A stretch of 40,868 bases of DNA from Candidatus Segetimicrobium genomatis (GTDB lineage Bacteria > Sysuimicrobiota > Sysuimicrobiia > Sysuimicrobiales > Kaftiobacteriaceae). Shown piece after piece: positions 19,250 to 40,868 of this stretch. Location: contig VBAL01000111.1 of NCBI GenBank assembly GCA_005888595.1, positions 9,450 to 50,317 of the forward strand. Direction: 5' to 3'. The position numbers and the translations under genes were made by a program. Under the pieces are notes generated by a model that saw only the letters and a program-made list of their open reading frames with translations, was not told the DNA's origin and did no database searches. Position 1 is the stretch's first letter. Each line of letters starts with the position of its first letter.

Positions 19250-20122
19250 GTGCGCGCTGCGGTGCCCAGGACTCGCGGGGAGGTCCCCTGGCTGCGCCTC
19301 GCATCCTACGCGGTCTTGGTCGCCGCGGCCCTGTTCTATCTCCTTCCCATCTATGTCCTGGTGATCACGGGGATGAAGAGTTTCGCCGAGGTGAACCTCT
19401 ACCGGATGTGGGACCTGCCGTCGAGATTTTCGCTGGACAGCTTCGTGAAGGCCTGGCTGGGGAGCGCGACTCAGGGGTTCCGGGGCCTGAGCAACAACTT
19501 CTGGAACAGCGTGCGCCTGGCGGTACCCGCGACCCTCCTGTCGGCCGCCCTGGGATCGATGAACGGGTACGTCCTGTCAAAGTGGAGATTCCGCGGCTCA
19601 GACAGCCTGTTTGCACTGCTCCTCTTCGGGATGTTCATCCCTTACCAGAGCATCTTGATCCCGCTCGTCCAGGTGCTGAGCCGCATCGGGCTCTATGGCT
19701 CAATTCCCGGCCTGATATTTGTCCACGTCGTGTACGGGATTCCGATCACGACGCTGATCTTCCGAAACTACTACGCCACCGTCCCCGGCGAACTCGTCGA
19801 GGCGGGGAAGATCGACGGCGCGGGCATCCTCGGCATCTACCGGTCGATCATGTTCCCGATCTCGATGCCGGCCTTCGCGGTAGTGATGATCTGGCAGTTC
19901 ACCTCGATCTGGAACGATTTCTTGTTCGGGGTCATCGTTACCCCGCGACCCGCGGTACAGCCGATCACGGTGGCCCTCAACAACCTCGCGGGTAGTTACA
20001 TCGTGGAATGGAACGTGCAGATGGCGGGCGCCCTGCTCGCCGCGCTGCCGACCATGCTGCTGTATATCGTGCTGGGCCGCTACTTCATGCGGGGGCTGCT
20101 GGCGGGATCCCTGAAAGCATAA
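19250..20122 (+). CDS. Sugar ABC transporter permease 2
   Basis: [12 protein letters not shown] and WNDFL motifs; TM helices. Confidence 0.95.
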
Positions 20123-20612: not shown

Positions 20613-21332
20613 TTGGATCAGGCGTGGAAAATAGTTGTCGGCCACTCAACCGTTGTCGCTACCGAGGTGACGAAGATCAAATCCAAGCTTCTTCCCCGGT
20701 TAGCCGTCCTACTGGCTGTTGCGGTGGGGCTTACGGCGGTCGCAGTAACCCGCTCCATCGGACGCTTTCGGGAGCGCCCCCCCGTCACGACCCCACCCGC
20801 AACGGAGCCTCGGCAACCTCGCTCATCGAGTCAGCCTAATCCGTCTGCAGCCGCAGATCAGGCACAGCCAGCCTATACGGGAGTGCTGGGAGATTTCCTG
20901 GTGACTGCGAAGGTAGGCCAGGTTGCAGATTGGCCACCATGTCCCGAGCCGCGTAGACCGGCTCAGAATTATAAGGCCTCGGAGGTCTATTCCCCCGTCT
21001 TCGGCGATCTTGAAGTATACGAGTGTGCTGACGGCAAGATCATCGGTCTTTCGGTTTATGGGGACCCGAGCATTGGAAAACGCTACTTCGTTGGGCCAGC
21101 GAAAGTCAATTACTTCGCGCCATTAGATCGACTCGTGCTGTTGAAAGTAGCGGGTCGTCCCGCAATTGCACAACTGCCAGCACCGGGTGATCCAGAGGGC
21201 CTCCGTCTTGCGGTCATCCAACGGGTTCCCAGCAACAATCAGCCCGGCATTATGGTCTGGATTGACAACACCAGCAAAAGTGTGGCAGAAGCCGCAGCGC
21301 TGGCGGCAGAAATTATGGGGGTGCGACCATGA
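20613..21332 (+). CDS. Hypothetical membrane-anchored protein (TM helix, Pro-rich linker, small extracytoplasmic domain); alternative start GTG 20667
   Basis: 239-aa ORF with hydrophobic LAVLLAVAVGLTAVAV; ATGA overlap with the next ORF; lower GC than the flanks. Confidence 0.7.
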   Translation: MDQAWKIVVGHSTVVATEVTKIKSKLLPRLAVLLAVAVGLTAVAVTRSIGRFRERPPVTTPPATEPRQPRSSSQPNPSAAADQAQPAYTGVLGDFLVTAKVGQVADWPPCPEPRRPAQNYKASEVYSPVFGDLEVYECADGKIIGLSVYGDPSIGKRYFVGPAKVNYFAPLDRLVLLKVAGRPAIAQLPAPGDPEGLRLAVIQRVPSNNQPGIMVWIDNTSKSVAEAAALAAEIMGVRP

Positions 21333-23023
21333 AAAGATTCTTGGTACTGATGACCGCAGTGTGCAGCGGGTTATCGCTCCCTCTGTTCGATCGTCCCGAG
21401 ATAGTGCAAGCTCAGACACCGCGTACGGACACAATCTACTTCATGGGCGCCACGCGAGGTAAGGACTACAATAATACGGGCGTTCTTTCATGGTGTGTCA
21501 GTCGGAGCTGGCATGAGAGCTATCCCAATGGTCCTGCGGATGCACTCGATGAGGTTGCACAGCAACAGGCGGTCCCAACACCCCCTCCCACTGATGACCA
21601 GTGGCCGGCGATTTGTAATAGTGATCCGACAGCGATCGACGGTTCCGGAAAGGTCGATCTTACAACCTACGGCGTTACGGGTCCGCTAGATTGCAGTTCG
21701 CCCTGCATTTCTTTAACCGTGAGAGGCAGATCTTTTGAGTACGGCGACGGCTGCGATTACATCGAGGCCGACCTTTACGATTTCGTCACTATGGACGACG
21801 GGCATAAAGTCGGTGAAAAGAAAGGGAAGCAGCGCATGATACATGCACTTGCACCTAATAGTACTAATGTCCCTTATGACCTGCCTTCCATACAAGTCAC
21901 ATCAACCGGATTGTACGCTAGCAATGAGATAGGGACACTACAAAATGACACCAATTGTAAACCCAATACTAACCCGCCTGGCTTTACACCAGGTGGTTAT
22001 CACGTCCACCATGACTTCATGCCACCGACGGGATCACAGTCTTGTTCGTGGAACCAAAACACTCCGGCGAACTTTCCTAGGCATATTACGGATCGGCAAA
22101 AACAGAATCCTTCCCACTGGGTGCATTTTGTGTCCCACAAACCTGGAGTGTCATGTTTTGCGGATGGGCCGCCAAAGTTGGCCGATAACTTGTTGGCATC
22201 GGACGGTGTGTTGGATGGAGACGGGAATGGTGGTGGGACCAGGGCGTTGGCAACAGGAGCACAATCTTCGCTCACGAGCCCGCAGACGTGCATTACAGGG
22301 ACGTCCTGGTGTGGAACAATCAGTGTGACTCCGCCTGTGGTGCAGGCGGCGTTTTCCAACTATTTGGGATTGTCGCCAACTGATTACTTGAGAGCGCAGC
22401 AGAAGCGTATTCCCCCCCGGGGGAGCACAACACCATACTATTGGTACGGTCCAGACAACGGAGGGTTCTATTTCTACGTGTTTTGGTGGATGACGTATCC
22501 GGACGGTAGTGGCTATTGGGACTGTGGCATGGGAGTACCAGGAGCAGAGAGGTATTGGGCGGGGTTTTCGAGTTGGACTGGTATTTATACTTGTCAGAAC
22601 GGGTTCATAAGCCTCGGCGGCGGTGGGGGGCCGGTGACCGCCATTGAAAATGAGTGGAGTCAGTTCCGGGGCTTGAATGGCATAAATCCGACAGCGCCGC
22701 CAACACAGCAAGACGCGAATACGTGGGCTCAGACTCAGATTGACAGTGGACACTGGGCGGATGTAGTGAAACCGGCTCTAGATGCGGTGATTCGTGCGGG
22801 GACGGGCAACATGGACATGGCGACGCTGGGGATTACGGGGGATCCTCCGTTTGATGGGGACCTCGGCCAGGTTGGGCTGGCGGGTGTAATGAACAGGATG
22901 AATACTGTAGCGTCGCGGGTTATGGACCTTCCGTTGTTTGATCCGACCCGAGCCGATATGAATCGTGATTGGATAGGTTCAACTCGCCCAAGGTGGAGTT
23001 TGACGGGAAAAGCTTTGAGGTAG
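21329..23023 (+). CDS. Secreted Cys-rich hypothetical protein with possible divergent M23 (LasA-like) metallopeptidase motifs
   Basis: 564-aa ORF; signal peptide MKRFLVLMTAV...QAQ; motifs WHESYPNGPADALD, MIHAL and GGYHVHH; lower GC. Confidence 0.7.
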   Translation: MKRFLVLMTAVCSGLSLPLFDRPEIVQAQTPRTDTIYFMGATRGKDYNNTGVLSWCVSRSWHESYPNGPADALDEVAQQQAVPTPPPTDDQWPAICNSDPTAIDGSGKVDLTTYGVTGPLDCSSPCISLTVRGRSFEYGDGCDYIEADLYDFVTMDDGHKVGEKKGKQRMIHALAPNSTNVPYDLPSIQVTSTGLYASNEIGTLQNDTNCKPNTNPPGFTPGGYHVHHDFMPPTGSQSCSWNQNTPANFPRHITDRQKQNPSHWVHFVSHKPGVSCFADGPPKLADNLLASDGVLDGDGNGGGTRALATGAQSSLTSPQTCITGTSWCGTISVTPPVVQAAFSNYLGLSPTDYLRAQQKRIPPRGSTTPYYWYGPDNGGFYFYVFWWMTYPDGSGYWDCGMGVPGAERYWAGFSSWTGIYTCQNGFISLGGGGGPVTAIENEWSQFRGLNGINPTAPPTQQDANTWAQTQIDSGHWADVVKPALDAVIRAGTGNMDMATLGITGDPPFDGDLGQVGLAGVMNRMNTVASRVMDLPLFDPTRADMNRDWIGSTRPRWSLTGKALR

Positions 23024-29875: not shown

Positions 29876-30775
29876 TTATCTTCCTGGCCTGACCTCCACC
29901 TTCGCTAACTCCTCGATCAGCGTCACAAGCGCAGAATGGTCTAAGTCACTCCGTTCTAGACCGCGCAGGGCCGTGAACGCTTCCTGCACCACCGCCGTGG
30001 CTGGGAGGGGGACGCCCAGCGCCTTTCCTGTCGACAGGGCGATGTTAAGGTCCTTCTGGTGGAGCCGTACGCGGAAACCGGGTTTGAAGTTCCGCTCCAG
30101 CATCCGCTGGCCATGGACATCAAGAATGCGGCTCTGCGCAAATCCGCCGAGGAGAGCCTGCCGCACTTTCGCCGGGTCCACCCCCGCTTTGGCGGCAAGG
30201 ACCAGGGCTTCGCTGACGGCCTGAATCGTGAGGGCCACCACGATCTGGTTGCACGCCTTGGCCACCTGACCGGCCCCGGCCCCGCCGATGTGCACGATGT
30301 TCTTGCCCAACGTTTCAAACACCGGACGCACGCGCGTGAAAACCGGCTCAGGACCGCCCACCATGATGGACAGGGTCGCTTCGATCGCACCCTTCTCGCC
30401 TCCACTGACCGGCGCGTCCAGCATCTGGGCACCTTTGGCCGTTACTGCGTTGGCGATCTCTTGGGTGACAAGCGGCGAGATCGTGCTCATGTCGACCAGC
30501 ACAGAACCGGGCCGGATGCCTTCCAGCACACCGTCACGCCCGAGAACAACCTGCTGGACATCCGGGGAGTCGGGGAGCATGGTGATGACGAAATCGCTTT
30601 GCTGGGCAACCCCCCGTGGCGATTTTCCATCGGCGGCGCCGGCTCCGACCAGTTCGTCCACGGGCGCACGGCTGCGGCTGTGGACGATCAGCGGATGACC
30701 CGATTTGAGCAGGTTGCGGGCCATAGGTTTGCCCATGATGCCCAGTCCGATAAAACCGATTCTTTCCTTAGCCAT
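29876..30775 (-). CDS. garR: 2-hydroxy-3-oxopropionate (tartronate semialdehyde) reductase
   Basis: GFIGLGIMGKPMA, MLPDSPDV, DAPVSGG, KACNQI and FKPGFRVRLHQKDL (GarR/GlxR-type). Confidence 0.88.
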   Translation of the reverse strand: MAKERIGFIGLGIMGKPMARNLLKSGHPLIVHSRSRAPVDELVGAGAADGKSPRGVAQQSDFVITMLPDSPDVQQVVLGRDGVLEGIRPGSVLVDMSTISPLVTQEIANAVTAKGAQMLDAPVSGGEKGAIEATLSIMVGGPEPVFTRVRPVFETLGKNIVHIGGAGAGQVAKACNQIVVALTIQAVSEALVLAAKAGVDPAKVRQALLGGFAQSRILDVHGQRMLERNFKPGFRVRLHQKDLNIALSTGKALGVPLPATAVVQEAFTALRGLERSDLDHSALVTLIEELAKVEVRPGR

Positions 30776-30797
30776 TCGGATGACCTCCTCGAACGAG

Positions 30798-30958
30798 AAC
30801 TGCGTCTACAAAGTCTACTATGTCTACTACGTCTACTACGTCTACTGCGTCTACTAGGTCTACTAGGTCTACCAGGTCTTCAAGAGTCGGCTCGTAGACA
30901 TAGTAGACTCAGAAGACGTTGTAGACTTTGTAGACATCACTTTGGATCAAGTAGACGC
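30798..30958. repeat. Inverted 9-mer arrays (GTCTAC-NNN)n ... (GTAGAC-NNN)n
   Basis: aactgc gtctacaaa gtctactat gtctactac ... gtagacata gtagactca gaagacgtt gtagacttt ...; about 9 units in the left arm. Confidence 0.93.
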
Positions 30959-30966
30959 CTTTGGGA

Positions 30967-32637
30967 TCATAGGGCAGTGGTACGTTGAAGGGAGCGCAGC
31001 GCGGTGCGTTCTCTGTCGACCACGGCCTCCCACGCCGCCCGCTGCCGCAATTTCTCCGCGCCGTCCCACCCACGCCCCGCTGACATCAGGTCAGCGACAC
31101 GCGCCGCAGCCGCCTGACCGGCATCCTCGCAGAGAATACTCAACCGCGTGCGCAAGAACATCATATCAGCGAGCGTTAACGCCATCTCGTGCCGGCAGGC
31201 GTAGACGACTTCCGCGGCCAGCACCGGCAACTCTTCGGCCAGTGGAGCCCGGAGCGCGGCGTCCCCGTTGGCGATGGCCAGGACGTCGGCCGCGGCGGCT
31301 CCATACGCGGCCAGGAGATGCTGCTGTACCTTGCGGGGAAGACCCTCACGCGCCAGCGCCTTGCGCGCGGCATCCAGACCCTCCGCATCCGCCAGCGGCA
31401 GCGTCGCAGTCCGGCACGGCCGTCGCTCCCCATCGCGCCGCGCCAGCACGTCGACGGTATCTTCGGCCATCTTGCGGTAACTGGTCAGCTTCCCTCCCAC
31501 GATGCTCACAAGTCCCCGTGGGGACTCAACGACGGCATGCTCCCGCGGTAGATCCGCCGACGACCGGCTGCCGGCTTCCACCAGCGGGCGGAGCCCAGCG
31601 TAAACCCCCAGAACATCGGCGGCCTCCACGGCCTGCCGTAACACACGGTTGGCCTGACGGAGGAGAAATGCGACGTCCGCCTCGGTCGCGGCCGGTGCGT
31701 CGATCTGGCCGTCGTAACTATCGTCGGTGGTACCGAGGATGACGCGGCCCGACCAGGGCACGAGAAAGGCCAGCCGGCCATCGTCGGTCTGCGGGATCAG
31801 CACGGCGGTCTCCGCCGGCAGCACCTCGCCCTGCAGCACCAGATGCACACCTTTGCTCGGCCGGATTCTAAACTGGGGCGGTCCATCCATCGACGCGGCC
31901 CGTTCAGCCCAGACGCCGGTGGCGTTCACGACGTGGCGGGCGCGCACGTCAACCGTTCGCCCGGTGAGCCCGTCTTCCACCCGGGCGCCCGCAACGCGAC
32001 CCTGCGCATACGCGAACGACCGGGCCAGGGCGTAATTCGCTGTCGCAGCTCCAAATCGCCGTGCCACAGCCAGAACACTCAGTGTCAGGCGGACGTCATC
32101 GGTGCGGGCGTCATGGAATAGAAACGCCGCGCGTAACCCGTCGGTCGATAGCGCCGGCACCAGCGAAGCCGCGTCCTCTGCCGTGAGCCGGCGGTGGTGC
32201 AGCGCCGGCATCCGGGCCAGACGGTCATACATCCACAGAACCGCCCTGACTCCCCAGGGGACGGCAGGCTGGAGGAACGCGGGAACGTGAACACCGAACG
32301 GCCGGGTCAGCCCGTCATAGAGCGGAATGAGAAATGGCTGCGGCCGGACCAGGTGCGGGGCGAGTCGCAGCAACCGCGCGCGTTCGCGGAGCGCCTCGCC
32401 GACGAGTTTCAGCTGACCGCGGGCCAGGTACCGGATGCCGCCGTGGATCAACTTGGTGGACCGGCTGCTGGTCCCGCTGGCGAAGTCCGCCTGCTCGACG
32501 AGCCCCACGCGGTAGCCGCGTGTGGCCGCATCCAGCGCCACCCCCGCGCCGGTGATCCCGCCGCCGATCACTAACACGTCCAACGGCCGCTCAAGGGCGG
32601 CGATCTGTTCTTCGCGGGACAGCACGACACTCTCCAA
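30967..32637 (-). CDS. glpD: FAD-dependent glycerol-3-phosphate dehydrogenase
   Basis: IGGGITGAG, GTSSRSTKLIHGGIRYL and GGKLTSYRKMAE motifs. Confidence 0.93.
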   Translation of the reverse strand: MESVVLSREEQIAALERPLDVLVIGGGITGAGVALDAATRGYRVGLVEQADFASGTSSRSTKLIHGGIRYLARGQLKLVGEALRERARLLRLAPHLVRPQPFLIPLYDGLTRPFGVHVPAFLQPAVPWGVRAVLWMYDRLARMPALHHRRLTAEDAASLVPALSTDGLRAAFLFHDARTDDVRLTLSVLAVARRFGAATANYALARSFAYAQGRVAGARVEDGLTGRTVDVRARHVVNATGVWAERAASMDGPPQFRIRPSKGVHLVLQGEVLPAETAVLIPQTDDGRLAFLVPWSGRVILGTTDDSYDGQIDAPAATEADVAFLLRQANRVLRQAVEAADVLGVYAGLRPLVEAGSRSSADLPREHAVVESPRGLVSIVGGKLTSYRKMAEDTVDVLARRDGERRPCRTATLPLADAEGLDAARKALAREGLPRKVQQHLLAAYGAAAADVLAIANGDAALRAPLAEELPVLAAEVVYACRHEMALTLADMMFLRTRLSILCEDAGQAAAARVADLMSAGRGWDGAEKLRQRAAWEAVVDRERTALRSLQRTTAL

Positions 32638-32736
32638 CTACGTCTTCTTGGTCTACTGAGTCTCCCTGGTCTACTTGGTCTCCGTAACTCTTGCGGACTA
32701 AGTAGACTAAGAAGACCAAGTAGACTAAGGAGACGT
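32636..32736. repeat. Inverted 9-mer arrays (GTCT-family)
   Basis: aactac gtcttcttg gtctactga gtctccctg gtctacttg gtctcc ... gtagactaa gaagaccaa gtagactaa ggagac; contains the stop of the first GDPD gene. Confidence 0.9.
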
Positions 32737-33459
32737 TTTTAAGCGCGCCAGCATCTTGCGAATCAATGTGGGGTCATCCGCGATGATGCCATCAACGCCG
32801 ACGCGTAATGCCTGGCGTGCTTCCTCCTCCGTACGCACGGTCCAGGTGATCACACGCAACCCGTGACTCCGGCAGGAGGCGACCACATCGGCGGTCAATG
32901 CCGTGACCTCAGGCAGATACGCGGTCGCCCGGACAGACACCGCGGCGTACGGATCTGCGGCCGACTGCAGCAACCCTGCCGGCATTTCCGGAGCCAGATC
33001 CCGGACGTGCGCCACGACCTGCGCGTCGAAGGACGAGATAAGCACTGAGTCCACCATCTGCATCTTCTTGATGAGGTCGAGGAGCGCCGCCTCGACCCCT
33101 GCGGCCTTCACCTCGACATCAACCAGCAAGCGGCCCCCCAACGCCTCAAAGACTTTGGACAGCAGCGGAATCCGCTCTCCGCGAAACGGCGGACCGAACT
33201 TCCGTCCGGCGTCGAAGCGGCGCAACTGGTCCAGCGTCAGCGCTGCAACCCTACCGGTGCCATCAGTGGTGCGATCGACCGAGGCATCGTGGATGACCAC
33301 GAGCTGACCGTCGACCGTCCGGCGGACATCGAGCTCGACAGCGTCCGCACCGAGATCGGCGGCCAGTCGGAACGCCGCCAGGGTATTCTCAGGCGCGGCG
33401 GCAGACGCACCGCGGTGCGCGATCACCAGACAGCGGTCCGATTCGAGCCACTTGTTCAT
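32725..33459 (-). CDS. Glycerophosphodiester phosphodiesterase (GlpQ/UgpQ family)
   Basis: IAHRGAS, PENTLAAF, ELDV, VIHD and WTV motifs; ATG at 33459. Confidence 0.93.
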   Translation of the reverse strand: MNKWLESDRCLVIAHRGASAAAPENTLAAFRLAADLGADAVELDVRRTVDGQLVVIHDASVDRTTDGTGRVAALTLDQLRRFDAGRKFGPPFRGERIPLLSKVFEALGGRLLVDVEVKAAGVEAALLDLIKKMQMVDSVLISSFDAQVVAHVRDLAPEMPAGLLQSAADPYAAVSVRATAYLPEVTALTADVVASCRSHGLRVITWTVRTEEEARQALRVGVDGIIADDPTLIRKMLARLKTSP

Positions 33460-33483
33460 ACTTGCACTACAGAGAGTCCTTTT

Positions 33484-33567
33484 TCCGTCATTGCGAGGAG
33501 CGAAGCGACGAAGCAATCTCCTGCAGGAAGGAGATCGCCACGCCCCTGCGGGGCTCGCGATGACGGA
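33484..33567. repeat. Palindromic REP/RPE-like element (GTCATTGCGAG ... CTCGCRATGAC type)
   Basis: tccgtcattgcgaggagcgaagcgacgaagcaatctc ... gagatcgccacgcccctgcggggctcgcgatgacgga; nested inverted repeats. Confidence 0.8.
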
Positions 33568-33590
33568 TCACCTGTTGTCTCCTGAGAACA

Positions 33591-34505
33591 TCATCCTTCG
33601 ACCAGCGCCGCCAGTTGCACCGCCGTATCGGTGGTGATCTGGTCCACGCCGGCGTGGAGCACTGCCTGCAGAGTCTCCGCCGCCCCAGACGCATCGGCGT
33701 CGAGCGTCCACGTGTCGATGAGCACACTACCGAGCTGGCGCCTGATGATCTCCACGGGATTGATCCCATCGGCGATCGCGCGGAGGATCAACTCCACGCG
33801 CAGGTAAATTTCCACGGCGCCCGGCAGCAGGCGACACAGACTCTCGATGCGATCCTCCAGGTAGGCGCGCACCGGCATGACCTGCATGTAGCCGAGAGGA
33901 TGATCGTCCAGGTACCCGTACACGTTGACGCGCAAGGGCAGTCGGGGAAACTCGGGGGCCGGCGCATCCAGATACAGAGCGAAATCGAGACCGACGGACA
34001 GGGTGGAATCGAGCCGCCGGAGCGTGCGCAGGTTCCAGTCCCCGAGGCACCCGACGACGACATTCAGTTGTGGGTTCGCGCGTAGGGGCTCAATGGCCCG
34101 CAGGAAGCGGCCGGCCTCCTCCTTGGGAAAAGGGATCTCATCTTTCAGGTCGATCTGTACCTTCAGCGGGCGGCGATGCCCTGCCAGAACCTGTGACAGG
34201 TCTGACAGGAGAGCGATAGACTCCTCAGATCCTCTCAGCCGGATGGTCTTTGCCGCCGCCCTGGTGATGTGGCGCACCGCACCGGTCCCCGTCGTCTCAC
34301 GCTCCAGGGTGTCGTCATGGATGAGCAGGTAATCCCCGCCCTCGATGGCGTGGACGTCGAACTCGATGACCTCAGCCCCGCCCTGCAGAAGCTCGCGGAG
34401 CGCGGACAGACTGTTGGGCGGAGAGGCGCCGGTCCCGGACAATAGCCGGTGATACTTCAACAGGACGCGCTGCCCGCCCGATGAGATGGCTCCGGGCAAA
34501 GTCAC
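33591..34505 (-). CDS. Divergent glycerophosphodiester phosphodiesterase family protein
   Basis: YHRL, PPNSLSAL, IEFDV, LIHDDTL, WTLD and DQITTD motifs, with a large central insertion. Confidence 0.8.
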   Translation of the reverse strand: MTLPGAISSGGQRVLLKYHRLLSGTGASPPNSLSALRELLQGGAEVIEFDVHAIEGGDYLLIHDDTLERETTGTGAVRHITRAAAKTIRLRGSEESIALLSDLSQVLAGHRRPLKVQIDLKDEIPFPKEEAGRFLRAIEPLRANPQLNVVVGCLGDWNLRTLRRLDSTLSVGLDFALYLDAPAPEFPRLPLRVNVYGYLDDHPLGYMQVMPVRAYLEDRIESLCRLLPGAVEIYLRVELILRAIADGINPVEIIRRQLGSVLIDTWTLDADASGAAETLQAVLHAGVDQITTDTAVQLAALVEG

Positions 34506-35287
34506 CGCCGAAACCCCATCATCTCAATCCAGCCGAAGGACGCATCGGTCGGTCCGGAGGGTTTGTACTCGAGCCCGACGTAGCCCTCATAGCCCATCGC
34601 GTCCAGCTGCTTAAGCACATACGGAAAGTTGATCTCGCCCGTGCCGGGTTCATGCCGGTCCGGAGAGTCGGCCACCTGCACGTGGCCGAGGCGTTCCCGC
34701 AGCCGCGCCATGGTGTGAACCAGATTTCCCTCCATGCGCTGCATGTGGTAGATGTCGTACTGAATCCGGGCGTTCGGCGCCCCGACATCATCCAGCAACC
34801 GCACCGCCTGCGCAGAGGTCGACAGGAAGAAACCCGCGATATCGTAGGTATTGATTGGCTCTACCAGCAGGGTGATCCCCTGCGACACCAATTGTCCGGC
34901 CGCGTAGCGGAGGTTGTCCACCAGGCACCGCCACTGCTCCTCGTATGCGAGGTGTTCGTCGCGCTTACCGACCAGACAGTTCACGCGCCGGCAACGGTAC
35001 CGCCGGGCCAGCTCCAGTGCCTGCCCTACTCCCCGGCGGAACTCTTCCCGGCGGCCAGGATGCACAGCCACTCCGCGATCTCCGGCCGCCCAGTCACCGG
35101 CCGGGAGGTTAAAGAGCACTTGTTCCAGCTTCAGACGATCCAGCGCCCGCGCAATGCCGTCGGTGTCTTCCTGATAGGGGAACATGTACTCCACCGCGCG
35201 GAAGCCATTGCGGGCGGCGGCGTCAAACCGCTCCAGGAAGGGCAGGTCACCGAACAGCATCGTGAGATTGGCAGCGAATTTTGGCAT
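34502..35287 (-). CDS. hyi: Hydroxypyruvate isomerase family protein
   Basis: MPKFAANLTMLF, VEPIN, YDIYHMQ, HVQVAD, RHEPGTGEIN and GLEYKP motifs. Confidence 0.9.
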   Translation of the reverse strand: MPKFAANLTMLFGDLPFLERFDAAARNGFRAVEYMFPYQEDTDGIARALDRLKLEQVLFNLPAGDWAAGDRGVAVHPGRREEFRRGVGQALELARRYRCRRVNCLVGKRDEHLAYEEQWRCLVDNLRYAAGQLVSQGITLLVEPINTYDIAGFFLSTSAQAVRLLDDVGAPNARIQYDIYHMQRMEGNLVHTMARLRERLGHVQVADSPDRHEPGTGEINFPYVLKQLDAMGYEGYVGLEYKPSGPTDASFGWIEMMGFRR

Positions 35288-35297
35288 GCACCCTCCT

Positions 35298-36497
35298 TCA
35301 GATCGGCGTCCGGGCAGCCGGCGCCAGTCGCGCGTACTGCGGCAGCGGGCCGACCAGCGGCCGGATATAGTCCATATACGCGGAGGTGACATCGTAACCG
35401 GAGGGAGCGATGAACTCCTCCGGCACGCGGCGGATGTCCCCTACCACCCGGTCCAGCGGCACCGCGCCGGTCGTACTCCGATAGACCGGACCCCGCTCGC
35501 GAACGAGCGTCATCATCGTGCCGCCGCGTCCGGCCACCGCCTCGCGCACCGCCGCCTGTCCGACCCGGTAGGCTTCCTCGGCATCCACACGAGAGGACAG
35601 GAGGGCAGAGACGCGCTGCATCGTACCGGGCTTGTCGAACCGGGCCTTGATCTGCAGATGCGTCATCACCAGATCGCACAGCACCGCGCCGACGCCGCCG
35701 AACTGTGGCCGCCCCAGCGGATCGGCTTCGACGGGTCGCTGAGATGCCGCCAGGAACTGCCCGCGCTCATCGACCAGCCCTTCGGCGGCCGCGATGAGCA
35801 CATGCCCGCGCTCGCGATGGACGCGTTCCACGTCGGCGAGGAATCGCTGCCTGACAAACGGACGCTCCGGCAGATAGATCAAGTGCGGCGCGTCACCCTC
35901 TCGCTGGCGCGCCAGCGCCGTACTGGCCGCCACCCACCCGGTGTGACGGCCCATCGTCTCGACCACCTTCACCGGATCGGCCGTGCCGATGGCTTCGGTG
36001 TCAAGCCCCGCTTCGCGGACCGATACCGCCAGCCATCGCGCCACGCTGGGATGCCCGGGGCAGTGATCAGTCTCGACCAGGTCGTTGTCGATTGTTTTGG
36101 GAATCGCGATGACCCACAGGTCGTACCGCAGGTCCGCCGCCCGGCGATGCAGCCTGAGCGCCGTCGCCGCAGACCCGTTCCCCCCGATATAAAGGAAGTA
36201 CCGGATGCCGCGGGCCTGGAAGATACGCATGATCCGGTCCACGTCGTCATCGCCCAGACCCGCCCGGGAGGTGCCTAATGCCGCCGACGGGGTGCGGCGC
36301 AGTTCCTCCAGCATTTCGGAGGACACGCGGCGCAGGTCGACCAGGTCTTCCCGTAGGAGTCCCAGCACTCCGAACCGCATGCCGTAGATCTCGCCGATCG
36401 CGTCGTGACGCAGGGCCTCCTGGATTACGGCCACCAGGCTGGCATTGACCACGGCGGTAGGACCGCCGGATTGACCGACAATAAGGTTCCCGCGCAT
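35298..36497 (-). CDS. PfkA-family sugar kinase (PPi-PFK-like clade with GGNGS)
   Basis: GQSGGPTAVVN, GGNGS, PKTIDND and MGR motifs; ATG overlaps the iolO stop. Confidence 0.88.
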   Translation of the reverse strand: MRGNLIVGQSGGPTAVVNASLVAVIQEALRHDAIGEIYGMRFGVLGLLREDLVDLRRVSSEMLEELRRTPSAALGTSRAGLGDDDVDRIMRIFQARGIRYFLYIGGNGSAATALRLHRRAADLRYDLWVIAIPKTIDNDLVETDHCPGHPSVARWLAVSVREAGLDTEAIGTADPVKVVETMGRHTGWVAASTALARQREGDAPHLIYLPERPFVRQRFLADVERVHRERGHVLIAAAEGLVDERGQFLAASQRPVEADPLGRPQFGGVGAVLCDLVMTHLQIKARFDKPGTMQRVSALLSSRVDAEEAYRVGQAAVREAVAGRGGTMMTLVRERGPVYRSTTGAVPLDRVVGDIRRVPEEFIAPSGYDVTSAYMDYIRPLVGPLPQYARLAPAARTPI

Positions 36498-37303
36498 CAC
36501 GCGCTCAACAGCGGACGCAGGTGAGCAATCGCCTGCCGGGCCGCACTTACCGGATCCGGACGCGGCAGGATTTCTGCCGACAGGTACCCCGTATATCCGA
36601 GCTCTCTCAACACGCGGACCAGCGCAGGGAAATCTAGGTGTCCCCACCCGGGGGCATGGCGATTACTGTCTGCGACATGCACATGGCGGAGGCGCGGTCG
36701 GGCGCGGCGGAGACTGCTCTCGATCGACGCCTCTTCGATGTTCATATGGAAGGTGTCCGCGAGGATCCCCAACGCTGGCGAGGCCAGCCGGTTGATGAGA
36801 TCGAGCACTTCATCCATGGTGACGAGGAAGTCGGTCTCGTACCGATTCACTGGCTCGAACACAACAGGAATCTTTTCCCGCTCGGCGAGGGGAAGGATCC
36901 GGCGCAGGGCACCGCTCAGCCGTGCCTCCGTCGCGGCGCGGTCTCCGGTGATCCGCCCCCGTAGCAGGCCCACGATCACCGCCGCGCCAAATACCGTCGC
37001 TATGCGAATGTGTGTCTCCAATCGTTCGATGGCGCGCGCACGGATGCCTTCGTCGGGGTGTGAGAGGCTCAAGCCATCTTTGAGATACGCCTGGCCCGTT
37101 CCGATGGCCGGAACCGCGAGCCCTGCGTCGCGCACCGTCCGCAGCACCGCCTCAGCGTCGACCTGCGAGGGATCGCGCACGGCCAGCTCGACCCCGTCAT
37201 AACCCAGGTCCGCCGCCGTGCGCAGGGCCTCTCGCCATGATCCGCGCATCGCCACCGCGTCGAAACCGGTCTCTTCGAGCGAGACGACGAGGCTCAGCTT
37301 CAC
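36497..37303 (-). CDS. iolO: 5-keto-L-gluconate epimerase (Thermotoga IolO-like)
   Basis: MKLSLVVS..FDAVA, ELAVRDP, AIGTGQAYLKDGLSL, EPVNRYE, DTFHMNIEE and HVADSNR; adjacent to iolN. Confidence 0.85.
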   Translation of the reverse strand: MKLSLVVSLEETGFDAVAMRGSWREALRTAADLGYDGVELAVRDPSQVDAEAVLRTVRDAGLAVPAIGTGQAYLKDGLSLSHPDEGIRARAIERLETHIRIATVFGAAVIVGLLRGRITGDRAATEARLSGALRRILPLAEREKIPVVFEPVNRYETDFLVTMDEVLDLINRLASPALGILADTFHMNIEEASIESSLRRARPRLRHVHVADSNRHAPGWGHLDFPALVRVLRELGYTGYLSAEILPRPDPVSAARQAIAHLRPLLSA

Positions 37304-37315
37304 GGAAAGCTACGC

Positions 37316-37399
37316 CACCAGGGCACCAGGGAACCAGGGGAACCATGCCTGCATGTGACTGTGGCACGCGGTACCTTGGTTCCCTGGTCCCTTGGTCCC
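37316..37399. repeat. Inverted octamer arrays (MACCAGGG)n ... (CCYTGGTY)n
   Basis: caccaggg caccaggg aaccagggg aacc ... ccttggtt ccctggtc ccttggtc. Confidence 0.8.
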
Positions 37400-37413
37400 G
37401 CCGTTGTCTTCAA

Positions 37414-38379
37414 TCAAGGTGGCCACCCCAAACTGTACAGGCTCTTGCCGCCACGGGCGGGTCCCTTCAGGACGGCCTCCAGTTCTTCCTTGTCACGCTC
37501 GGTGACCAGCTCCATCGGCGGTAGCTTCCCCGGCGGGAACGTCTTGATGACGTCGGTGACGAGCCGCTCGATGTAGTCCAGCAAAGCCTCCACCCCGGGG
37601 AGCGCCTTCTCGGCCTTCGCCAGCGACGGCTTGCCAACCACGCCTTCGATATACGCCTTGACCTCGATAGGGCCGGCTCCGATGTGGCCGTACCAGTTGA
37701 TGGGGCGGCGAAGCAGGTTGCCGGCTTTGTCCACATGGCCCTCCGGCAGGAAACCGAACGGGTTGTTGTCCACGGCCCACTCCTGTTTCATCAGCTCGGG
37801 GAACAACGCCAGGCACCAGGAGGTCTCGACCTCATCGGCATGGATGAACGGCGTCTCATACGGGCCACCCTGGGCCTTAAGTTTGAAGTGATCCTGAACG
37901 GCATGGTACCAGTTCAGGTTGATAACCAGTGCCGGCACCCGGTAGCGCTTGCCAAACTGATGGATGGCGGTGGGAATCACGTACTCCTGTCCGTGACCAT
38001 TCAGCAGGATCTGTTTCCGGAAGCCCATGTTCCAGAATCCGGCGATCATGGCCCGCAGGAAGCCCGTAAAGACCTCCTCCGGGATCACCACCGTGCTCGG
38101 CATGCCGAGATGATGATACGGATGCGATCCCCACCACAGCGGTTCGGAGACGGTACATCCCGTGCGCTCTGCCACCGCCTCCGCCATCCGCGTCACCAGG
38201 AAGATATCCTCACCAATCGGCGCATTGGGCCCATGCGCTTCCGTCGCACCGAGGGGCACGATCAGGACGTCGTTGGTTTTCAGACGTTCCTCAATGTCGC
38301 GCATCGTCATCGTTTGCAGATAGACGCCGGTGCGCTTGTCCATGTGACCGCCCTTCGGCGGCAAACTCCACTTCGCCAT
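37414..38379 (-). CDS. iolN: 3-dehydro-scyllo-inosose hydrolase (creatininase family, Thermotoga IolN-like)
   Basis: GVYLQTMT, TEAHGP, GED, NGHGQE, PFIHADEVETS and YIEGVVGK, close to the recalled T. maritima IolN sequence. Confidence 0.88.
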   Translation of the reverse strand: MAKWSLPPKGGHMDKRTGVYLQTMTMRDIEERLKTNDVLIVPLGATEAHGPNAPIGEDIFLVTRMAEAVAERTGCTVSEPLWWGSHPYHHLGMPSTVVIPEEVFTGFLRAMIAGFWNMGFRKQILLNGHGQEYVIPTAIHQFGKRYRVPALVINLNWYHAVQDHFKLKAQGGPYETPFIHADEVETSWCLALFPELMKQEWAVDNNPFGFLPEGHVDKAGNLLRRPINWYGHIGAGPIEVKAYIEGVVGKPSLAKAEKALPGVEALLDYIERLVTDVIKTFPPGKLPPMELVTERDKEELEAVLKGPARGGKSLYSLGWPP

Positions 38380-38394
38380 TGCTAACCTCCTCTG

Positions 38395-38491
38395 AGTGAT
38401 TAGTGATTCGTGATTAGTGATTCGTAAATTCGCGAAATCAAGTAACCGACGCGCCTCCCAAGATCTTGCGAATCACGAATCACTAATCACG
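38395..38491. repeat. Inverted heptamer arrays (GTGATTM)n ... (GAATCAC)n
   Basis: agtgatt agtgatt cgtgatt agtgatt ... gaatcac gaatcac taatcac; contains the ATPase stop. Confidence 0.88.
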
Positions 38492-39550
38492 TAGTATGTG
38501 AGTCCGCTCGGGCGGAATCTCAAGGAAGACATCCCCGCCATAGACCGTCTCCCCCGGGGACGGCACGTCCACAATCCAGGTCAACCCGGCGGCTTCCACC
38601 CAGTACCGGGCGAGCGTGCCCAGGAAACTGGCGGTGGTAATCCGTCCTGGAAGGACGTTATCCATCTGTGGCGGCGCGCGGTGGAGCCGGATCGCTTCCG
38701 GCCGGAGCACCAACGTGACCCGGCCTCCGGCGGTACCACCCCGCCCCATCTCGGGCGCTGCCCGGTTCAGCGGAACGCGCAACGTCACGCCGCCGATCCG
38801 CACCACGTCGGGGCCGGCCACATCTGCCTCGACGAAATTGGCCAGGCCCACGAAATCGGCCACGAAGCGGTTTGCCGGATGGTGGTAGATTTCTACCGGC
38901 GTGCCGATCTGCTGCACCCGGCCGCGGTCCATCACCGCGATACGGTCGGACACCGCGAGCGCCTCTTCCTGATCGTGGGTCACATAGAGCACGGTCTTGC
39001 CCAGCTGTCGCTGCAGCTGCCGGATCTCGGTCCGGACCCGCACGCGCAGCTTGGCGTCGAGATTCGAGAGGGGCTCATCCAGGAGCAGGACTTCGGGCTC
39101 GACGACCAGCGCGCGCGCCAGGGCGACGCGCTGCTGCTGTCCGCCCGACAGCCTGGCGGGAAAGGTCCGCTCGACTCCACTCAGTCCAACCAAGCTTAGC
39201 GCCGCCGCCACACGGCGCGCCACATCTCGCTCGCCTACGTGGCGCATGCGCAACCCATAGGCCACGTTTTCAACCACAGTCATGTGAGGGAAGAGTGCGT
39301 ATTCTTGAAAGACCATCGCCGTCTGGCGGAGGTGGGGGGGCAGATTGTTCACGCGTCTGGCCCCGATGAACACGTCTCCGCGGTCAGGCGGGTAGAACCC
39401 GGCTACAATGCGCAGCGTCGTCGTCTTCCCGCAGCCGCTTGGCCCCAGCAGCGTATAGAAGCTGCCCTCCGGCACGTCCAGCGATACACGGTCGACGGCG
39501 GGAAGTGAGCCAAACCGCTTAGACACCTCGACCAACCGTACTTCAGCCAT
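38483..39550 (-). CDS. ABC transporter ATP-binding protein (PotA/FbpC-like)
   Basis: GPSGCGKTT, LSGGQQQRV, LLLDEP and YVTHDQ motifs; C-terminal TOBE-like region. Confidence 0.95.
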   Translation of the reverse strand: MAEVRLVEVSKRFGSLPAVDRVSLDVPEGSFYTLLGPSGCGKTTTLRIVAGFYPPDRGDVFIGARRVNNLPPHLRQTAMVFQEYALFPHMTVVENVAYGLRMRHVGERDVARRVAAALSLVGLSGVERTFPARLSGGQQQRVALARALVVEPEVLLLDEPLSNLDAKLRVRVRTEIRQLQRQLGKTVLYVTHDQEEALAVSDRIAVMDRGRVQQIGTPVEIYHHPANRFVADFVGLANFVEADVAGPDVVRIGGVTLRVPLNRAAPEMGRGGTAGGRVTLVLRPEAIRLHRAPPQMDNVLPGRITTASFLGTLARYWVEAAGLTWIVDVPSPGETVYGGDVFLEIPPERTHILRD

Positions 39551-39571
39551 CGCCCATCCCAAGAATTCGCT

Positions 39572-40868
39572 TCATCCCACCGGCAGCCCGCGCAACCCGC
39601 GGGCAATAGCCAGCCGCGCTCCGCCCACGGCCACGAAGGTGATGGCGAGGAGCGCCGTCGTCAGCGCAGCTGCCGCCCCCCAGAATCCGCCGCTGATCAT
39701 GGACAAGATCGAGTAGGTGGCGACCAGGTTGCGGGGGGTGACCAGGAACACGACGATGCTGAGGTTTGTCACCGCGCGGATGAACGATGTAACAAACGAT
39801 GCCGTGAACGGTCCGCGCAGCAGCGGCAAGTAGATGTCGGTCAGGATGCGCAGCCCACTCGCACCGAGATCGGCTGCCGCCTCCTCAATGGAACGGTCGA
39901 TCTGCTTGAGCCCGGCGACGGCGGCCTGGTAACCAAACGGGATATGCCAGAACGTCAACGCCAGGATGAGGATCCAGGGCGTGCCGCCCAGCACGAGCGG
40001 CGGCTGGTTGAACGCCAGCAGGAAGCCGATCCCGATGAAGACGCCCGGCATCGCCGCGGGTAGTACGGCGAGTAAATCAAGCGCACGCTCCACACGGTAT
40101 TGCCTGCGGGAGGTGAGGAACGCGGCGACGAGCGCAATCACGCTGGTCAGCAACGCGCTGCCCGTGCCGACTTTCACACTGTTCACCAGCTGCCCGCCGC
40201 CCGCCGCCAACGCCAGTCGCCAGTGGTCCAGAGTAAGCGTCCAGTTGTATCCCCAGGTGCGGGCGAATGCGCCGGCCAGCACCGCCGCGTATACCAGCAG
40301 GACGAACAGCGCCACCACCGTGCAGATCGCGGTCAGCGGCCAGAGGAAGAACCAGGGCGTGGCCGGGCGGGCCAGCCGCGATCCACGCCCGGTGATTGCC
40401 GTATACAGGCGCCGGCTCACCCACACTCGCTCCAGGATGAACAAGCCGGCCGTGGGTACCAGGAGCAGGCTCACCACCACCGCCGCCCCGCTCAGGTCGG
40501 CCAGACCCTCAATTCGAAACCACGCTTCCGTCGCCAGGAGAGGGAGGTTGCCGGCGATGACAATGGCGTTGCCGAAGTCGGCCAGCACCGTAATCGCGAC
40601 AATGAGCATGGCCGCGGCCAGACCAGGACGGGCCAGGGGCGCCGTGACCGTGCGGAAGAGGGTCCATTCACCGGCGCCGAGGTCGCGGGCTGCATACTCG
40701 AGGGTCGGGTTGATCGCGTCCAGTACCTGACCGATGATCAACGTGGCATACGGAAAGAACGCCACGGTCTGGACCAGCCACAACCCCTGCCACCCGAAGA
40801 TGTTCACATCCAGGCCGAGCAGGGTCTTCGTGATCAGCCCCTGCCGTCCAAACATCAAGATGTAGGCA
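39572..40868 (-). CDS. FbpB-type fused ABC permease (5' end outside window), likely for inositol or inositol-phosphate compounds
   Basis: Two EAA-like motifs (LEYAARDLGA, IEEAAADLGA); many TM helices; context upstream of iolN. Confidence 0.88.
   Translation of the reverse strand, partial: AYILMFGRQGLITKTLLGLDVNIFGWQGLWLVQTVAFFPYATLIIGQVLDAINPTLEYAARDLGAGEWTLFRTVTAPLARPGLAAAMLIVAITVLADFGNAIVIAGNLPLLATEAWFRIEGLADLSGAAVVVSLLLVPTAGLFILERVWVSRRLYTAITGRGSRLARPATPWFFLWPLTAICTVVALFVLLVYAAVLAGAFARTWGYNWTLTLDHWRLALAAGGGQLVNSVKVGTGSALLTSVIALVAAFLTSRRQYRVERALDLLAVLPAAMPGVFIGIGFLLAFNQPPLVLGGTPWILILALTFWHIPFGYQAAVAGLKQIDRSIEEAAADLGASGLRILTDIYLPLLRGPFTASFVTSFIRAVTNLSIVVFLVTPRNLVATYSILSMISGGFWGAAAALTTALLAITFVAVGGARLAIARGLRGLPVG

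Follow-up and report, generated by a model that had tools for sequence, protein, structure and literature searches.

A PfkA-family kinase within an inositol-catabolic operon of Candidatus Segetimicrobium genomatis: a candidate keto-uronate branch yielding tartronate semialdehyde

Results

Ten genes at the end of a contig

We analyzed a stretch of 40,868 nucleotides, hereafter the window, from Candidatus Segetimicrobium genomatis (phylum Sysuimicrobiota; assembly GCA_005888595.1, contig VBAL01000111.1, positions 9,450 to 50,317), and in particular a gene cluster in which a sugar kinase of the PfkA family lies next to enzymes of inositol degradation. We propose that this kinase may phosphorylate a 2-ketohexuronate derived from inositol. 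The window makes up the final 40.9 kb of its 50.3-kb contig, and the genome (G000) is a 2.94-Mb assembly of 325 contigs, 87.8% complete. Other genomes, contigs and loci are designated below by G, C and L numbers, families and genera by f and g.

On the minus strand, from position 40868 down to 29876, ten tightly packed genes were recognized by profile searches against Pfam and TIGR/NCBIfam (Table 1); the end of the window coincides with the end of the contig. An initial annotation, made from the sequence alone, had singled out iolN, iolO, the PfkA-family kinase, hyi and garR, and all five lie on the minus strand exactly where it had placed them. It had overlooked the two genes of the glycerophosphodiester phosphodiesterase (GDPD) family and glpD, between hyi and garR, as well as the upstream ATP-binding cassette (ABC) transporter. 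The translational coupling that it claimed between iolO and the kinase is borne out by the sequence TGATG at 36495-36499, where the TGA stop of the former and the ATG start of the latter share one base. Further on, 10 nt that include a ribosome-binding site (AGGAGG) separate the kinase stop from the hyi ATG.

The garR product clears the tartronate semialdehyde reductase model and stays below the cut-off of three sister models: 3-hydroxyisobutyrate dehydrogenase (233 bits vs 292), sulfolactaldehyde reductase (194 vs 348) and L-threonate dehydrogenase (163 vs 350). The iolN product is 85-99% identical to its counterparts in relatives. No uxa or uxu gene is present among the large open reading frames of the window, as the initial annotation had said.

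Table 1. Genes of the cluster, in order of transcription, with profile scores in bits and model cut-offs
Gene and predicted product	Position	Strand	Evidence
Fused ABC permease, PhnU2-like	39572..40868	-	PF00528 twice; TIGR03262 positions 114-525 of 546; N-terminus lost at contig end
ABC transporter ATPase, PhnT2/UgpC-like	38483..39562	-	PF00005 and TOBE_2
iolN, 3-dehydro-scyllo-inosose hydrolase, creatininase fold	37414..38379	-	NF041098 526 vs cut-off 245, model positions 1-307; PF02633
iolO, 5-keto-L-gluconate epimerase (product D-tagaturonate)	36497..37303	-	NF041099 full-length, 333 vs cut-off 300; PF01261
PfkA-family kinase, 399 aa	35298..36497	-	PF00365 162; NF010675 (PRK14072 subfamily) 441.6 vs 273
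hyi-like isomerase (hydroxypyruvate / tartronate semialdehyde), 261 aa	34502..35287	-	TIGR03234 362.2 vs 353.45; also OtnI model NF043033 334.7 vs 325
Divergent GDPD-family phosphodiesterase	33591..34505	-	PF03009 41, residues 28-141; GTG start overlaps hyi stop
UgpQ-like glycerophosphodiester phosphodiesterase	32725..33516	-	PF03009 169; NF006989 162, under cut-off 264
glpD, FAD-dependent glycerol-3-phosphate dehydrogenase	30967..32637	-	PF01266 and PF16901; NF008899 327.5, under cut-off 360
garR, tartronate semialdehyde (2-hydroxy-3-oxopropionate) reductase	29876..30775	-	TIGR01505 401.7 vs 340.75

The upstream half of the operon lies on another contig

The initial annotation had remarked that iolM and an aldolase were not in the window. 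The first was found in the same genome, on contig C174 (571.8 bits, cut-off 450); a dedicated aldolase of the family described below was not. C174 carries on one strand iolM, a second Zn-dehydrogenase gene, a ribose-type ABC system, a further ABC system, an iolG-like gene of the Gfo/Idh/MocA dehydrogenase family, a Cof-type phosphatase of the HAD family and a PhnS2-like binding protein gene, after which the contig ends. In a congener (G056, whose kinase is 94% identical), a single contig (L141, G056:C54) encodes an iolG-like protein, the phosphatase, the binding protein, permease, ATPase, iolN, iolO, the kinase and hyi. Because both gene sets are there in one piece, C174 and the window are two parts of one locus: C174 is the upstream continuation of the operon, and the assembly is broken inside the transporter.

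The gene content suggests that the operon is fed by glycerophosphoinositol or an inositol phosphate rather than by free inositol. Cues, from positions 30967-34505 of the window and from C174 (L092:264-2303), are the two GDPD-family genes, glpD, the Cof-type phosphatase and the PhnS2/T2/U2-like ABC systems. Homologues of the divergent GDPD gene follow hyi in G052 and lie within the clusters of G048 and G040; the GDPD pair recurs in these same three genomes.

Kinase, hyi and aldolase genes travel together

We examined 94 genomes of the phylum, from 31 genera, and for 20 of the kinase-bearing ones inspected the surroundings of the kinase gene over at most 20 kb; spacings were counted in 30 genomes, including short loci and one unpublished genome. 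The phylum tallies include the unpublished genomes G025 and/or G017, and the conclusions are independent of both. A close homologue of the kinase is encoded in 32 of the 94 genomes, belonging to 10 of the 31 genera and to two families only. IolN is present in all 32 kinase-bearing genomes, vs 68/94 in the phylum overall.

The usual gene order is permease, ATPase, iolN, iolO, binding protein, permease, ATPase, a class I aldolase of the Cgl0159 family (PF22649), kinase, hyi and garR; in one family, the hyi-garR pair is divergent from the aldolase-kinase pair. The hyi gene was found at most 1.4 kb from the kinase in 26 of 30 genomes, the other four loci being cut by contig ends, a linkage far beyond chance. 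The aldolase is no more than 40 bp from the kinase in 16/30 genomes and one gene (~1.4 kb) away in 5/30, and none was seen in 9/30. An aldolase beside the kinase, for which the initial annotation had proposed a neighbourhood analysis, is thus found in 21 of 30 genomes, and the association of kinase, hyi and garR with iolN-iolO that it described is conserved over 10 genera.

A wider scan, with one genome per species, returned relatives of the kinase at 80 loci: four at 65-75% identity and 76 at 46% or less. In three of the four, hyi directly follows the kinase gene; the 76 more distant loci have no such neighbours. At the fourth locus (L006:10001-11258, or G012:C6:20680-21946, in a metagenome-assembled genome labelled Armatimonadota), the kinase gene is interrupted: its matches are two high-scoring segment pairs that differ in frame and contain a TAG and a TAA. 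It is either a pseudogene or an assembly error, and hyi lies ~70 bp beyond its end.

Two other genes were encountered near the kinase. In G048, the gene between aldolase and kinase (L127:8040-9428) belongs to the sulfatase/alkaline-phosphatase superfamily by Pfam; G042, G050, G051 and G053 have the same ~1.4-kb spacing, from which a gene of this family is inferred there. A cupin isomerase resembling IolB/KduI is encoded near a PFK-like (phosphofructokinase-like) or FGGY kinase at L003:2401-3255 (G038; TIGR04378 203 vs 205), L160:3740-4438 (G092), L159:12162-12938 (G040) and L004:4790-5578, and at C310:9219-9962 in the genome of the window. This isomerase could be a second feeder, converting aldo-uronates to keto-uronates.

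An unrelated kinase occupies the same position in four genomes

In four genomes (G010, G019, G093 and G092), a kinase of the FGGY family takes the place of the PFK-like kinase. In G010 it is flanked by the transporter and by aldolase-hyi-garR, and matches PF00370 and PF02782 (333 vs 380 on XylB, the nearest model); in G019 and G093 its homologue immediately precedes aldolase-hyi-garR. G092 has, in order, iolN, iolO, an rbsB-like binding-protein gene, the IolB/KduI-like gene, a ~3-kb stretch, the FGGY kinase, hyi and garR, with the aldolase ~12 kb upstream on the same contig. Since an FGGY kinase can replace the PFK-like one there, the position calls for a kinase acting on an unphosphorylated sugar acid and not on fructose-6-phosphate. 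The use of two unrelated kinase families in one slot argues for phosphorylation of a pathway intermediate. Clusters of three more genomes (G040, G039 and G006) have no kinase next to the aldolase; G039 and G040 encode an orthologue of the cluster FGGY kinase elsewhere.

The kinase clade and its phosphoryl donor

In a tree of the PRK14072 subfamily, the kinase and its close homologues form a clade of 27 sequences (SH-aLRT branch support 97), whose sister is a long-branched sequence from Chloroflexota and which is separate from the gammaproteobacterial, clostridial and spirochaetal clades. Its nearest solved relatives are deposited as pyrophosphate (PPi)-dependent phosphofructokinases (3K2Q, 3HNO), and its catalytic motifs, TIDND and MGR, are conserved in the alignment, as is an R-x8-R stretch.

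The genome also encodes a second, canonical PfkA, on contig C136 (TIGR02483 441 vs 430.55), beside an aldolase gene discussed below. Given this canonical enzyme, the kinase of the window is not the cell's glycolytic phosphofructokinase. In E. coli PfkA, the ligands of the 6-phosphate are R162, R243, H249 and R252. When the kinase is aligned with the canonical PfkA of its own genome, both Arg of the R-x8-R stretch are aligned with Arg, the His is replaced by Thr and the R162 position is non-basic. Comparison of the 27 sequences with 76 other PRK14072-type sequences, a heterogeneous group, gave six weak clade-specific columns, none of them an obvious substrate-binding residue.

The residue equivalent to D175 of the Entamoeba histolytica enzyme bears on the donor: it is Asp in PPi-type and Gly in ATP-type enzymes, the Asp blocking ATP in PPi-dependent phosphofructokinases (PMC5931981). 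At this position, 21 of the 27 sequences have Asp (GGNDS) and six have Gly (GGNGS or GGEGS). This suggests that the kinase of the window uses ATP, and that most other members of the clade may use PPi. The Gly sequences come from the window, its congener and the genera g2 and g5, and group together in a single subclade (SH-aLRT 99). This subclade includes g1 and g2, two genera wholly without the Cgl0159-family aldolase; in g5 one of two genomes has the aldolase, on a contig other than that of the kinase. The Asp-to-Gly change, limited to g1, g2 and g5 and so largely to the group without an adjacent Cgl0159-family aldolase, may mark a switch from PPi to ATP.

The aldolase family in and outside the phylum

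The only solved relative of the aldolase is the uncharacterized Cgl0159 (3FOK); beyond it, an archaeal class I aldolase is matched distantly. No function is given for the family in NCBIfam or Atlas, and the literature that we found on Cgl0159/cg0198 describes it only as a 'conserved hypothetical protein'. The family has matches in 87 plasmid records, of which we inspected three, all from actinobacteria (Streptomyces, Clavibacter and Tsukamurella). Each has the aldolase gene overlapping the iolC end, with iolB and iolD coming after it; Tsukamurella has an additional gene, for a CoA-acylating semialdehyde dehydrogenase, between the aldolase and iolB. In these actinobacterial clusters the gene occupies the slot of the 2-deoxy-5-keto-gluconate-6-phosphate aldolase, which yields dihydroxyacetone phosphate (DHAP) and malonate semialdehyde.

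A different candidate was seen in genomes where the Cgl0159 family was not found (G000, G055, G056, G037 and G038 among them). In the genome of the window, a LacD-like class I 'tagatose-bisphosphate' aldolase of the PRK12858 subfamily (324 vs 184) follows the canonical PfkA on C136 (L091:1303-3421). It is the sole class I aldolase and the sole candidate fructose-bisphosphate aldolase found in this genome, and no class II aldolase was found there; the search for class I fructose-bisphosphate aldolase with PF00274 matched in no control genome and is not informative. The LacD-like family has a patchy distribution, with 37/94 genomes of the phylum. Orthologues at 53% identity or more were found in 6/7 kinase-bearing genomes without a Cgl0159-family aldolase, vs 4/25 of those with one, a contrast that rests on about three genus-level events. 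This is suggestive only of a substitute aldolase in this genus. In the genus of the window and in g2, the gene that directly abuts the kinase is iolO or a transporter gene; in G031, the position of the aldolase holds a prephenate dehydratase gene and fragments of a phosphate transporter. The divergent GDPD-family protein was considered as a stand-in aldolase and rejected: it keeps the GDPD motifs, and it co-occurs with the Cgl0159-family aldolase in G048 and G040.

In family f4, Cgl0159-family aldolases have other surroundings. At L146 and L150 the gene is beside a short-chain dehydrogenase and a luciferase-like monooxygenase, a Zn-dehydrogenase being confirmed by Pfam in L150 only; at L149 an adh2-like tblastn match lies beside it. 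No hyi or garR was found around the aldolase at these three loci.

Other exits from tagaturonate, and glycerate kinase

The initial annotation had noted the lack of uxa and uxu genes in the window. In the whole genome, at 87.8% completeness, UxaE (PF16257) had no match either, the Thermotoga maritima control being positive, and no match was obtained for altronate dehydratase. A true IolD was not found in this genome (best match 266 vs 715). At the level of the phylum, strong UxaE matches (at least 443 bits) are confined to nine genomes, all of family f4, in which IolN is present in 20/23 genomes and the PFK-like kinase in 0/23. In family f1, 15 of 21 genomes encode the kinase and none of the 21 encodes UxaE. 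Weak UxaE-like matches (138-177 bits) occur in eight genomes of family f2, four of them kinase-bearing.

For the last step, a MOFRL-type glycerate kinase is encoded in the genome of the window, outside the operon, and no GlxK-type glycerate kinase was found in this genome.

Other features of the window

The remainder of the window consists of unrelated housekeeping and sugar-transport genes. Between positions 20000 and 24000, G+C content is 0.57-0.58, vs ~0.64 elsewhere, and two adjacent open reading frames (20613-21332 and 21329-23023) have no Pfam match.

Discussion

A keto-uronate kinase branch of inositol catabolism

We propose that the cluster in the window is the downstream half of a single long inositol-catabolic operon, to which inositol would probably be delivered as glycerophosphoinositol or inositol phosphate. 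By homology to characterized enzymes, the GDPD proteins and the phosphatase would release inositol, and GlpD would convert the glycerol-3-phosphate to DHAP. The IolG-like dehydrogenase, IolM and IolN would then open the ring to give 5-keto-L-gluconate, which IolO is predicted to epimerize to D-tagaturonate. Gene context and chemistry suggest that the PfkA-family kinase phosphorylates the CH2OH adjoining the keto group of such a 2-ketohexuronate. A class I aldolase, of the Cgl0159 family in most relatives and perhaps the LacD-like enzyme of C136 in this genus, would cleave the product to DHAP and tartronate semialdehyde. GarR would reduce the semialdehyde to D-glycerate, Hyi would hold it in equilibrium with hydroxypyruvate, and the MOFRL-type glycerate kinase would pass glycerate into glycolysis.

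The chemistry of this scheme is coherent. The product of IolN, HOCH2-CO-(CHOH)3-COO-, should differ from the substrate of the inositol kinase IolC only by its 2-OH. Once the CH2OH is phosphorylated, a cut between C3 and C4 (numbering from the phosphate end) would give DHAP and OHC-CHOH-COO-; the latter is tartronate semialdehyde, on which both GarR and Hyi act. The reduction would give D-glycerate because the remaining stereocentre is D in the D-tagato configuration reached after IolO.

We give a probability of roughly 60% to an operon with such a keto-uronate kinase branch, ending in DHAP and tartronate semialdehyde. The interpretation of the kinase as a uronate kinase goes back to the initial annotation; its support comes from comparative genomics, and neighbourhood, linkage and UxaE distribution all speak for it. 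A broader scheme may be drawn, and its chances seem to us about even. In this 'uronate glycolysis', 2-ketohexuronates (D-tagaturonate, 5-keto-L-gluconate and perhaps fructuronate) would be phosphorylated at C1 and split by the Cgl0159-family aldolase to DHAP and tartronate semialdehyde. The kinases would have been recruited independently (PfkA, FGGY, and perhaps PfkB with TM0415 in Thermotoga), and the feeders would be IolM/IolN/IolO and possibly the IolB/KduI-like isomerases.

Several observations weigh against the keto-uronate kinase branch. The aldolase is the main one: no Cgl0159-family member was found in the genome of the window or the two others of its genus (3/3), in the genomes of genus g2 (3/3), or in G031 and G045. 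For this organism the aldolase step is therefore conjectural, and the reading is weakest for the very genome in which the operon was first seen, which has no dedicated aldolase. At the entry of the pathway, the iolG-like gene of C174 scores 158 on TIGR04380, against an IolG cut-off of 355. At its exit, the clusters that we inspected contain no glycerate kinase, and the Hyi-like protein clears the 2-oxo-tetronate isomerase (OtnI) model as well as its own, an ambiguity shared by its relatives, two of which also pass OtnI. Four kinase-bearing genomes (G012, G031, G032 and G034) have UxaE-like matches of 138-172 bits. The FGGY-aldolase-hyi-garR module of G093 stands in a genome, 89% complete, without an IolN match, so the kinase-aldolase module can exist without IolN. 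As for the kinase, two of the four residues that bind the 6-phosphate in E. coli PfkA have Arg equivalents, and other clades of the subfamily vary as much, some with similar motifs. The sugar-phosphate site is very variable in this family, and residue comparison by itself does not prove a new substrate.

Alternative roles for the kinase

The kinase, the aldolase-like lyase and the Hyi-like and GarR-like proteins might instead form a linear route for a four-carbon acid sugar, with iolN and iolO as mere neighbours. The acid would be oxidized, isomerized to a 3-oxo acid, phosphorylated, and decarboxylated to DHAP by an enzyme with a class I aldolase fold. A pathway of this kind for L-threonate and D-erythronate consists of LtnD, OtnI, OtnK and OtnC. 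Such a route would give Hyi an essential role, agrees with its passing the OtnI model, and would account for G093, where the module is found without IolN. On the other side, GarR fails the L-threonate dehydrogenase model by a wide margin, yet clears the tartronate semialdehyde reductase model. The aldolase family occupies the slot of a six-carbon keto-acid-phosphate aldolase in actinobacterial iol clusters, iolO is translationally coupled to the kinase in the window, and IolN accompanies the kinase in every genome that has it. We consider the four-carbon route unlikely.

The kinase might also act at another point of inositol degradation. It could phosphorylate myo-inositol or a keto-inositol before ring opening, in which case cleavage would yield a phosphorylated keto-uronate, or 2-deoxy-5-keto-gluconate made by the IolB-like isomerase. 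For the former, TM0415 of T. maritima is a parallel: it makes inositol 1-phosphate with PPi, if weakly, and is an orphan as to its true acceptor (PMC5931981). IolB/KduI-like genes near the kinase (in G038, G092, G040 and at L004) would fit the latter, and the lack of a kinase adjacent to the aldolase in the clusters of G040, G039 and G006 would fit a role elsewhere, but two of these genomes (G039 and G040) carry the orthologue of the cluster FGGY kinase at another place. PfkA and FGGY kinases take open or furanose sugars and are not known to act on cyclitols, and with no IolD found in this genome the 2-deoxy branch has no source. This alternative appears quite improbable to us.

That the kinase is an ordinary ATP- or PPi-dependent 6-phosphofructokinase, lying in the operon by chance and, for instance, keeping the triose and hexose phosphate pools in balance while the cell grows on inositol and glycerol-3-phosphate, would agree with its PRK14072 subfamily match, the annotation of its nearest solved relatives and its intact catalytic motifs, but is very unlikely given the canonical PfkA beside an aldolase in the same genome, the restriction of the clade to IolN-bearing genomes and to this cluster, and its replacement in four genomes by FGGY kinases, which do not use sugar phosphate acceptors.

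Comparison with known systems

The keto-uronate kinase branch resembles, in its logic, the classical IolC/IolJ pathway, where a 5-keto-hexonate receives a phosphate on its CH2OH and is then cleaved to DHAP and a three-carbon semialdehyde acid; in the actinobacterial form, an aldolase of the same Cgl0159 family follows the kinase. It differs in that the kinase is of PfkA or FGGY type, unlike the PfkB-type IolC, and in that IolD was not found. As the 2-OH is kept, the product would be tartronate and not malonate semialdehyde, handled by GarR and Hyi rather than IolA. In the gcl-hyi-glxR and garL-garR-garK operons of E. coli, an enzyme forming tartronate semialdehyde is likewise encoded with Hyi and/or the reductase; here, however, the semialdehyde would stem from aldol cleavage of a phosphorylated keto-uronate, and not from glyoxylate carboligation or cleavage of 5-keto-4-deoxyglucarate.

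In T. maritima, as summarized in PMC5931981, inositol is oxidized by IolG, IolM, IolN and IolO, and the product enters UxaE and the hexuronate route. Equivalogs of IolM, IolN and IolO are present here, with an IolG-like dehydrogenase, but UxaE and altronate dehydratase were not found; instead we find the PfkA-family kinase, Hyi and GarR, and in relatives the class I aldolase. For the orphan PPi-dependent kinase TM0415, encoded in the iol operon of T. maritima, 5-keto-L-gluconate or D-tagaturonate has been suggested as the real substrate (PMC5931981).

Sulfoglycolysis offers a precedent for the kinase. SqiK, which the initial annotation rightly cited, is a sulfofructose kinase of the PfkA family (PF00365), acting on a fructose analogue with a non-phosphate anionic group at C6 (PMC9594981). 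In both sulfo-EMP2 (SqiK, SqiA) and sulfo-EMP (YihV, YihT, YihU), variants named after the Embden-Meyerhof-Parnas pathway, the aldolase gives DHAP and an acidic three-carbon aldehyde, which is reduced by an enzyme of the GarR family (PMC9594981). The differences are a carboxylate in place of the sulfonate, a class I aldolase of the Cgl0159 family in place of a class II enzyme, the lack of sulfoquinovose genes here, and the failure of the window GarR on the sulfolactaldehyde reductase model. The C4 epimerization of 5-keto-L-gluconate to D-tagaturonate is also part of the L-glucose/L-galactose pathway of Luteolibacter, but tagaturonate there goes through altronate to 2-keto-3-deoxygluconate, which is phosphorylated and gives pyruvate and glyceraldehyde 3-phosphate (PMC12632266); altronate dehydratase was not found here.

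The splitting of an acidic hexulose by a kinase and an aldolase is thus already known in kind from IolC/IolJ and from sulfoglycolysis, and the keto-uronate version would be the new part. In the literature searched, most subscription papers and supplements lying outside it, we found no description of a tagaturonate or fructuronate kinase, of their 1-phosphates or of this branch of inositol catabolism.

If the proposal is right, it would add a third way of completing inositol catabolism, besides the IolD/IolC/IolJ and the Thermotoga/UxaE routes, and a new entry of hexuronate carbon into glycolysis in which both halves are conserved as trioses. Two new activities would be defined, a ketohexuronate 1-kinase and a 1-phospho-ketohexuronate aldolase. 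These would provide a first function for a whole clade of phosphofructokinase-like proteins, correcting its automatic naming as fructose-6-phosphate phosphotransferase, and for the Cgl0159 aldolase family, so far a structural-genomics orphan (PDB 3FOK). The unexplained kinase of the T. maritima operon would be accounted for as well, and the PfkA scaffold would have, after sulfofructose kinase, a second natural case of reading a non-phosphate anion at C6.

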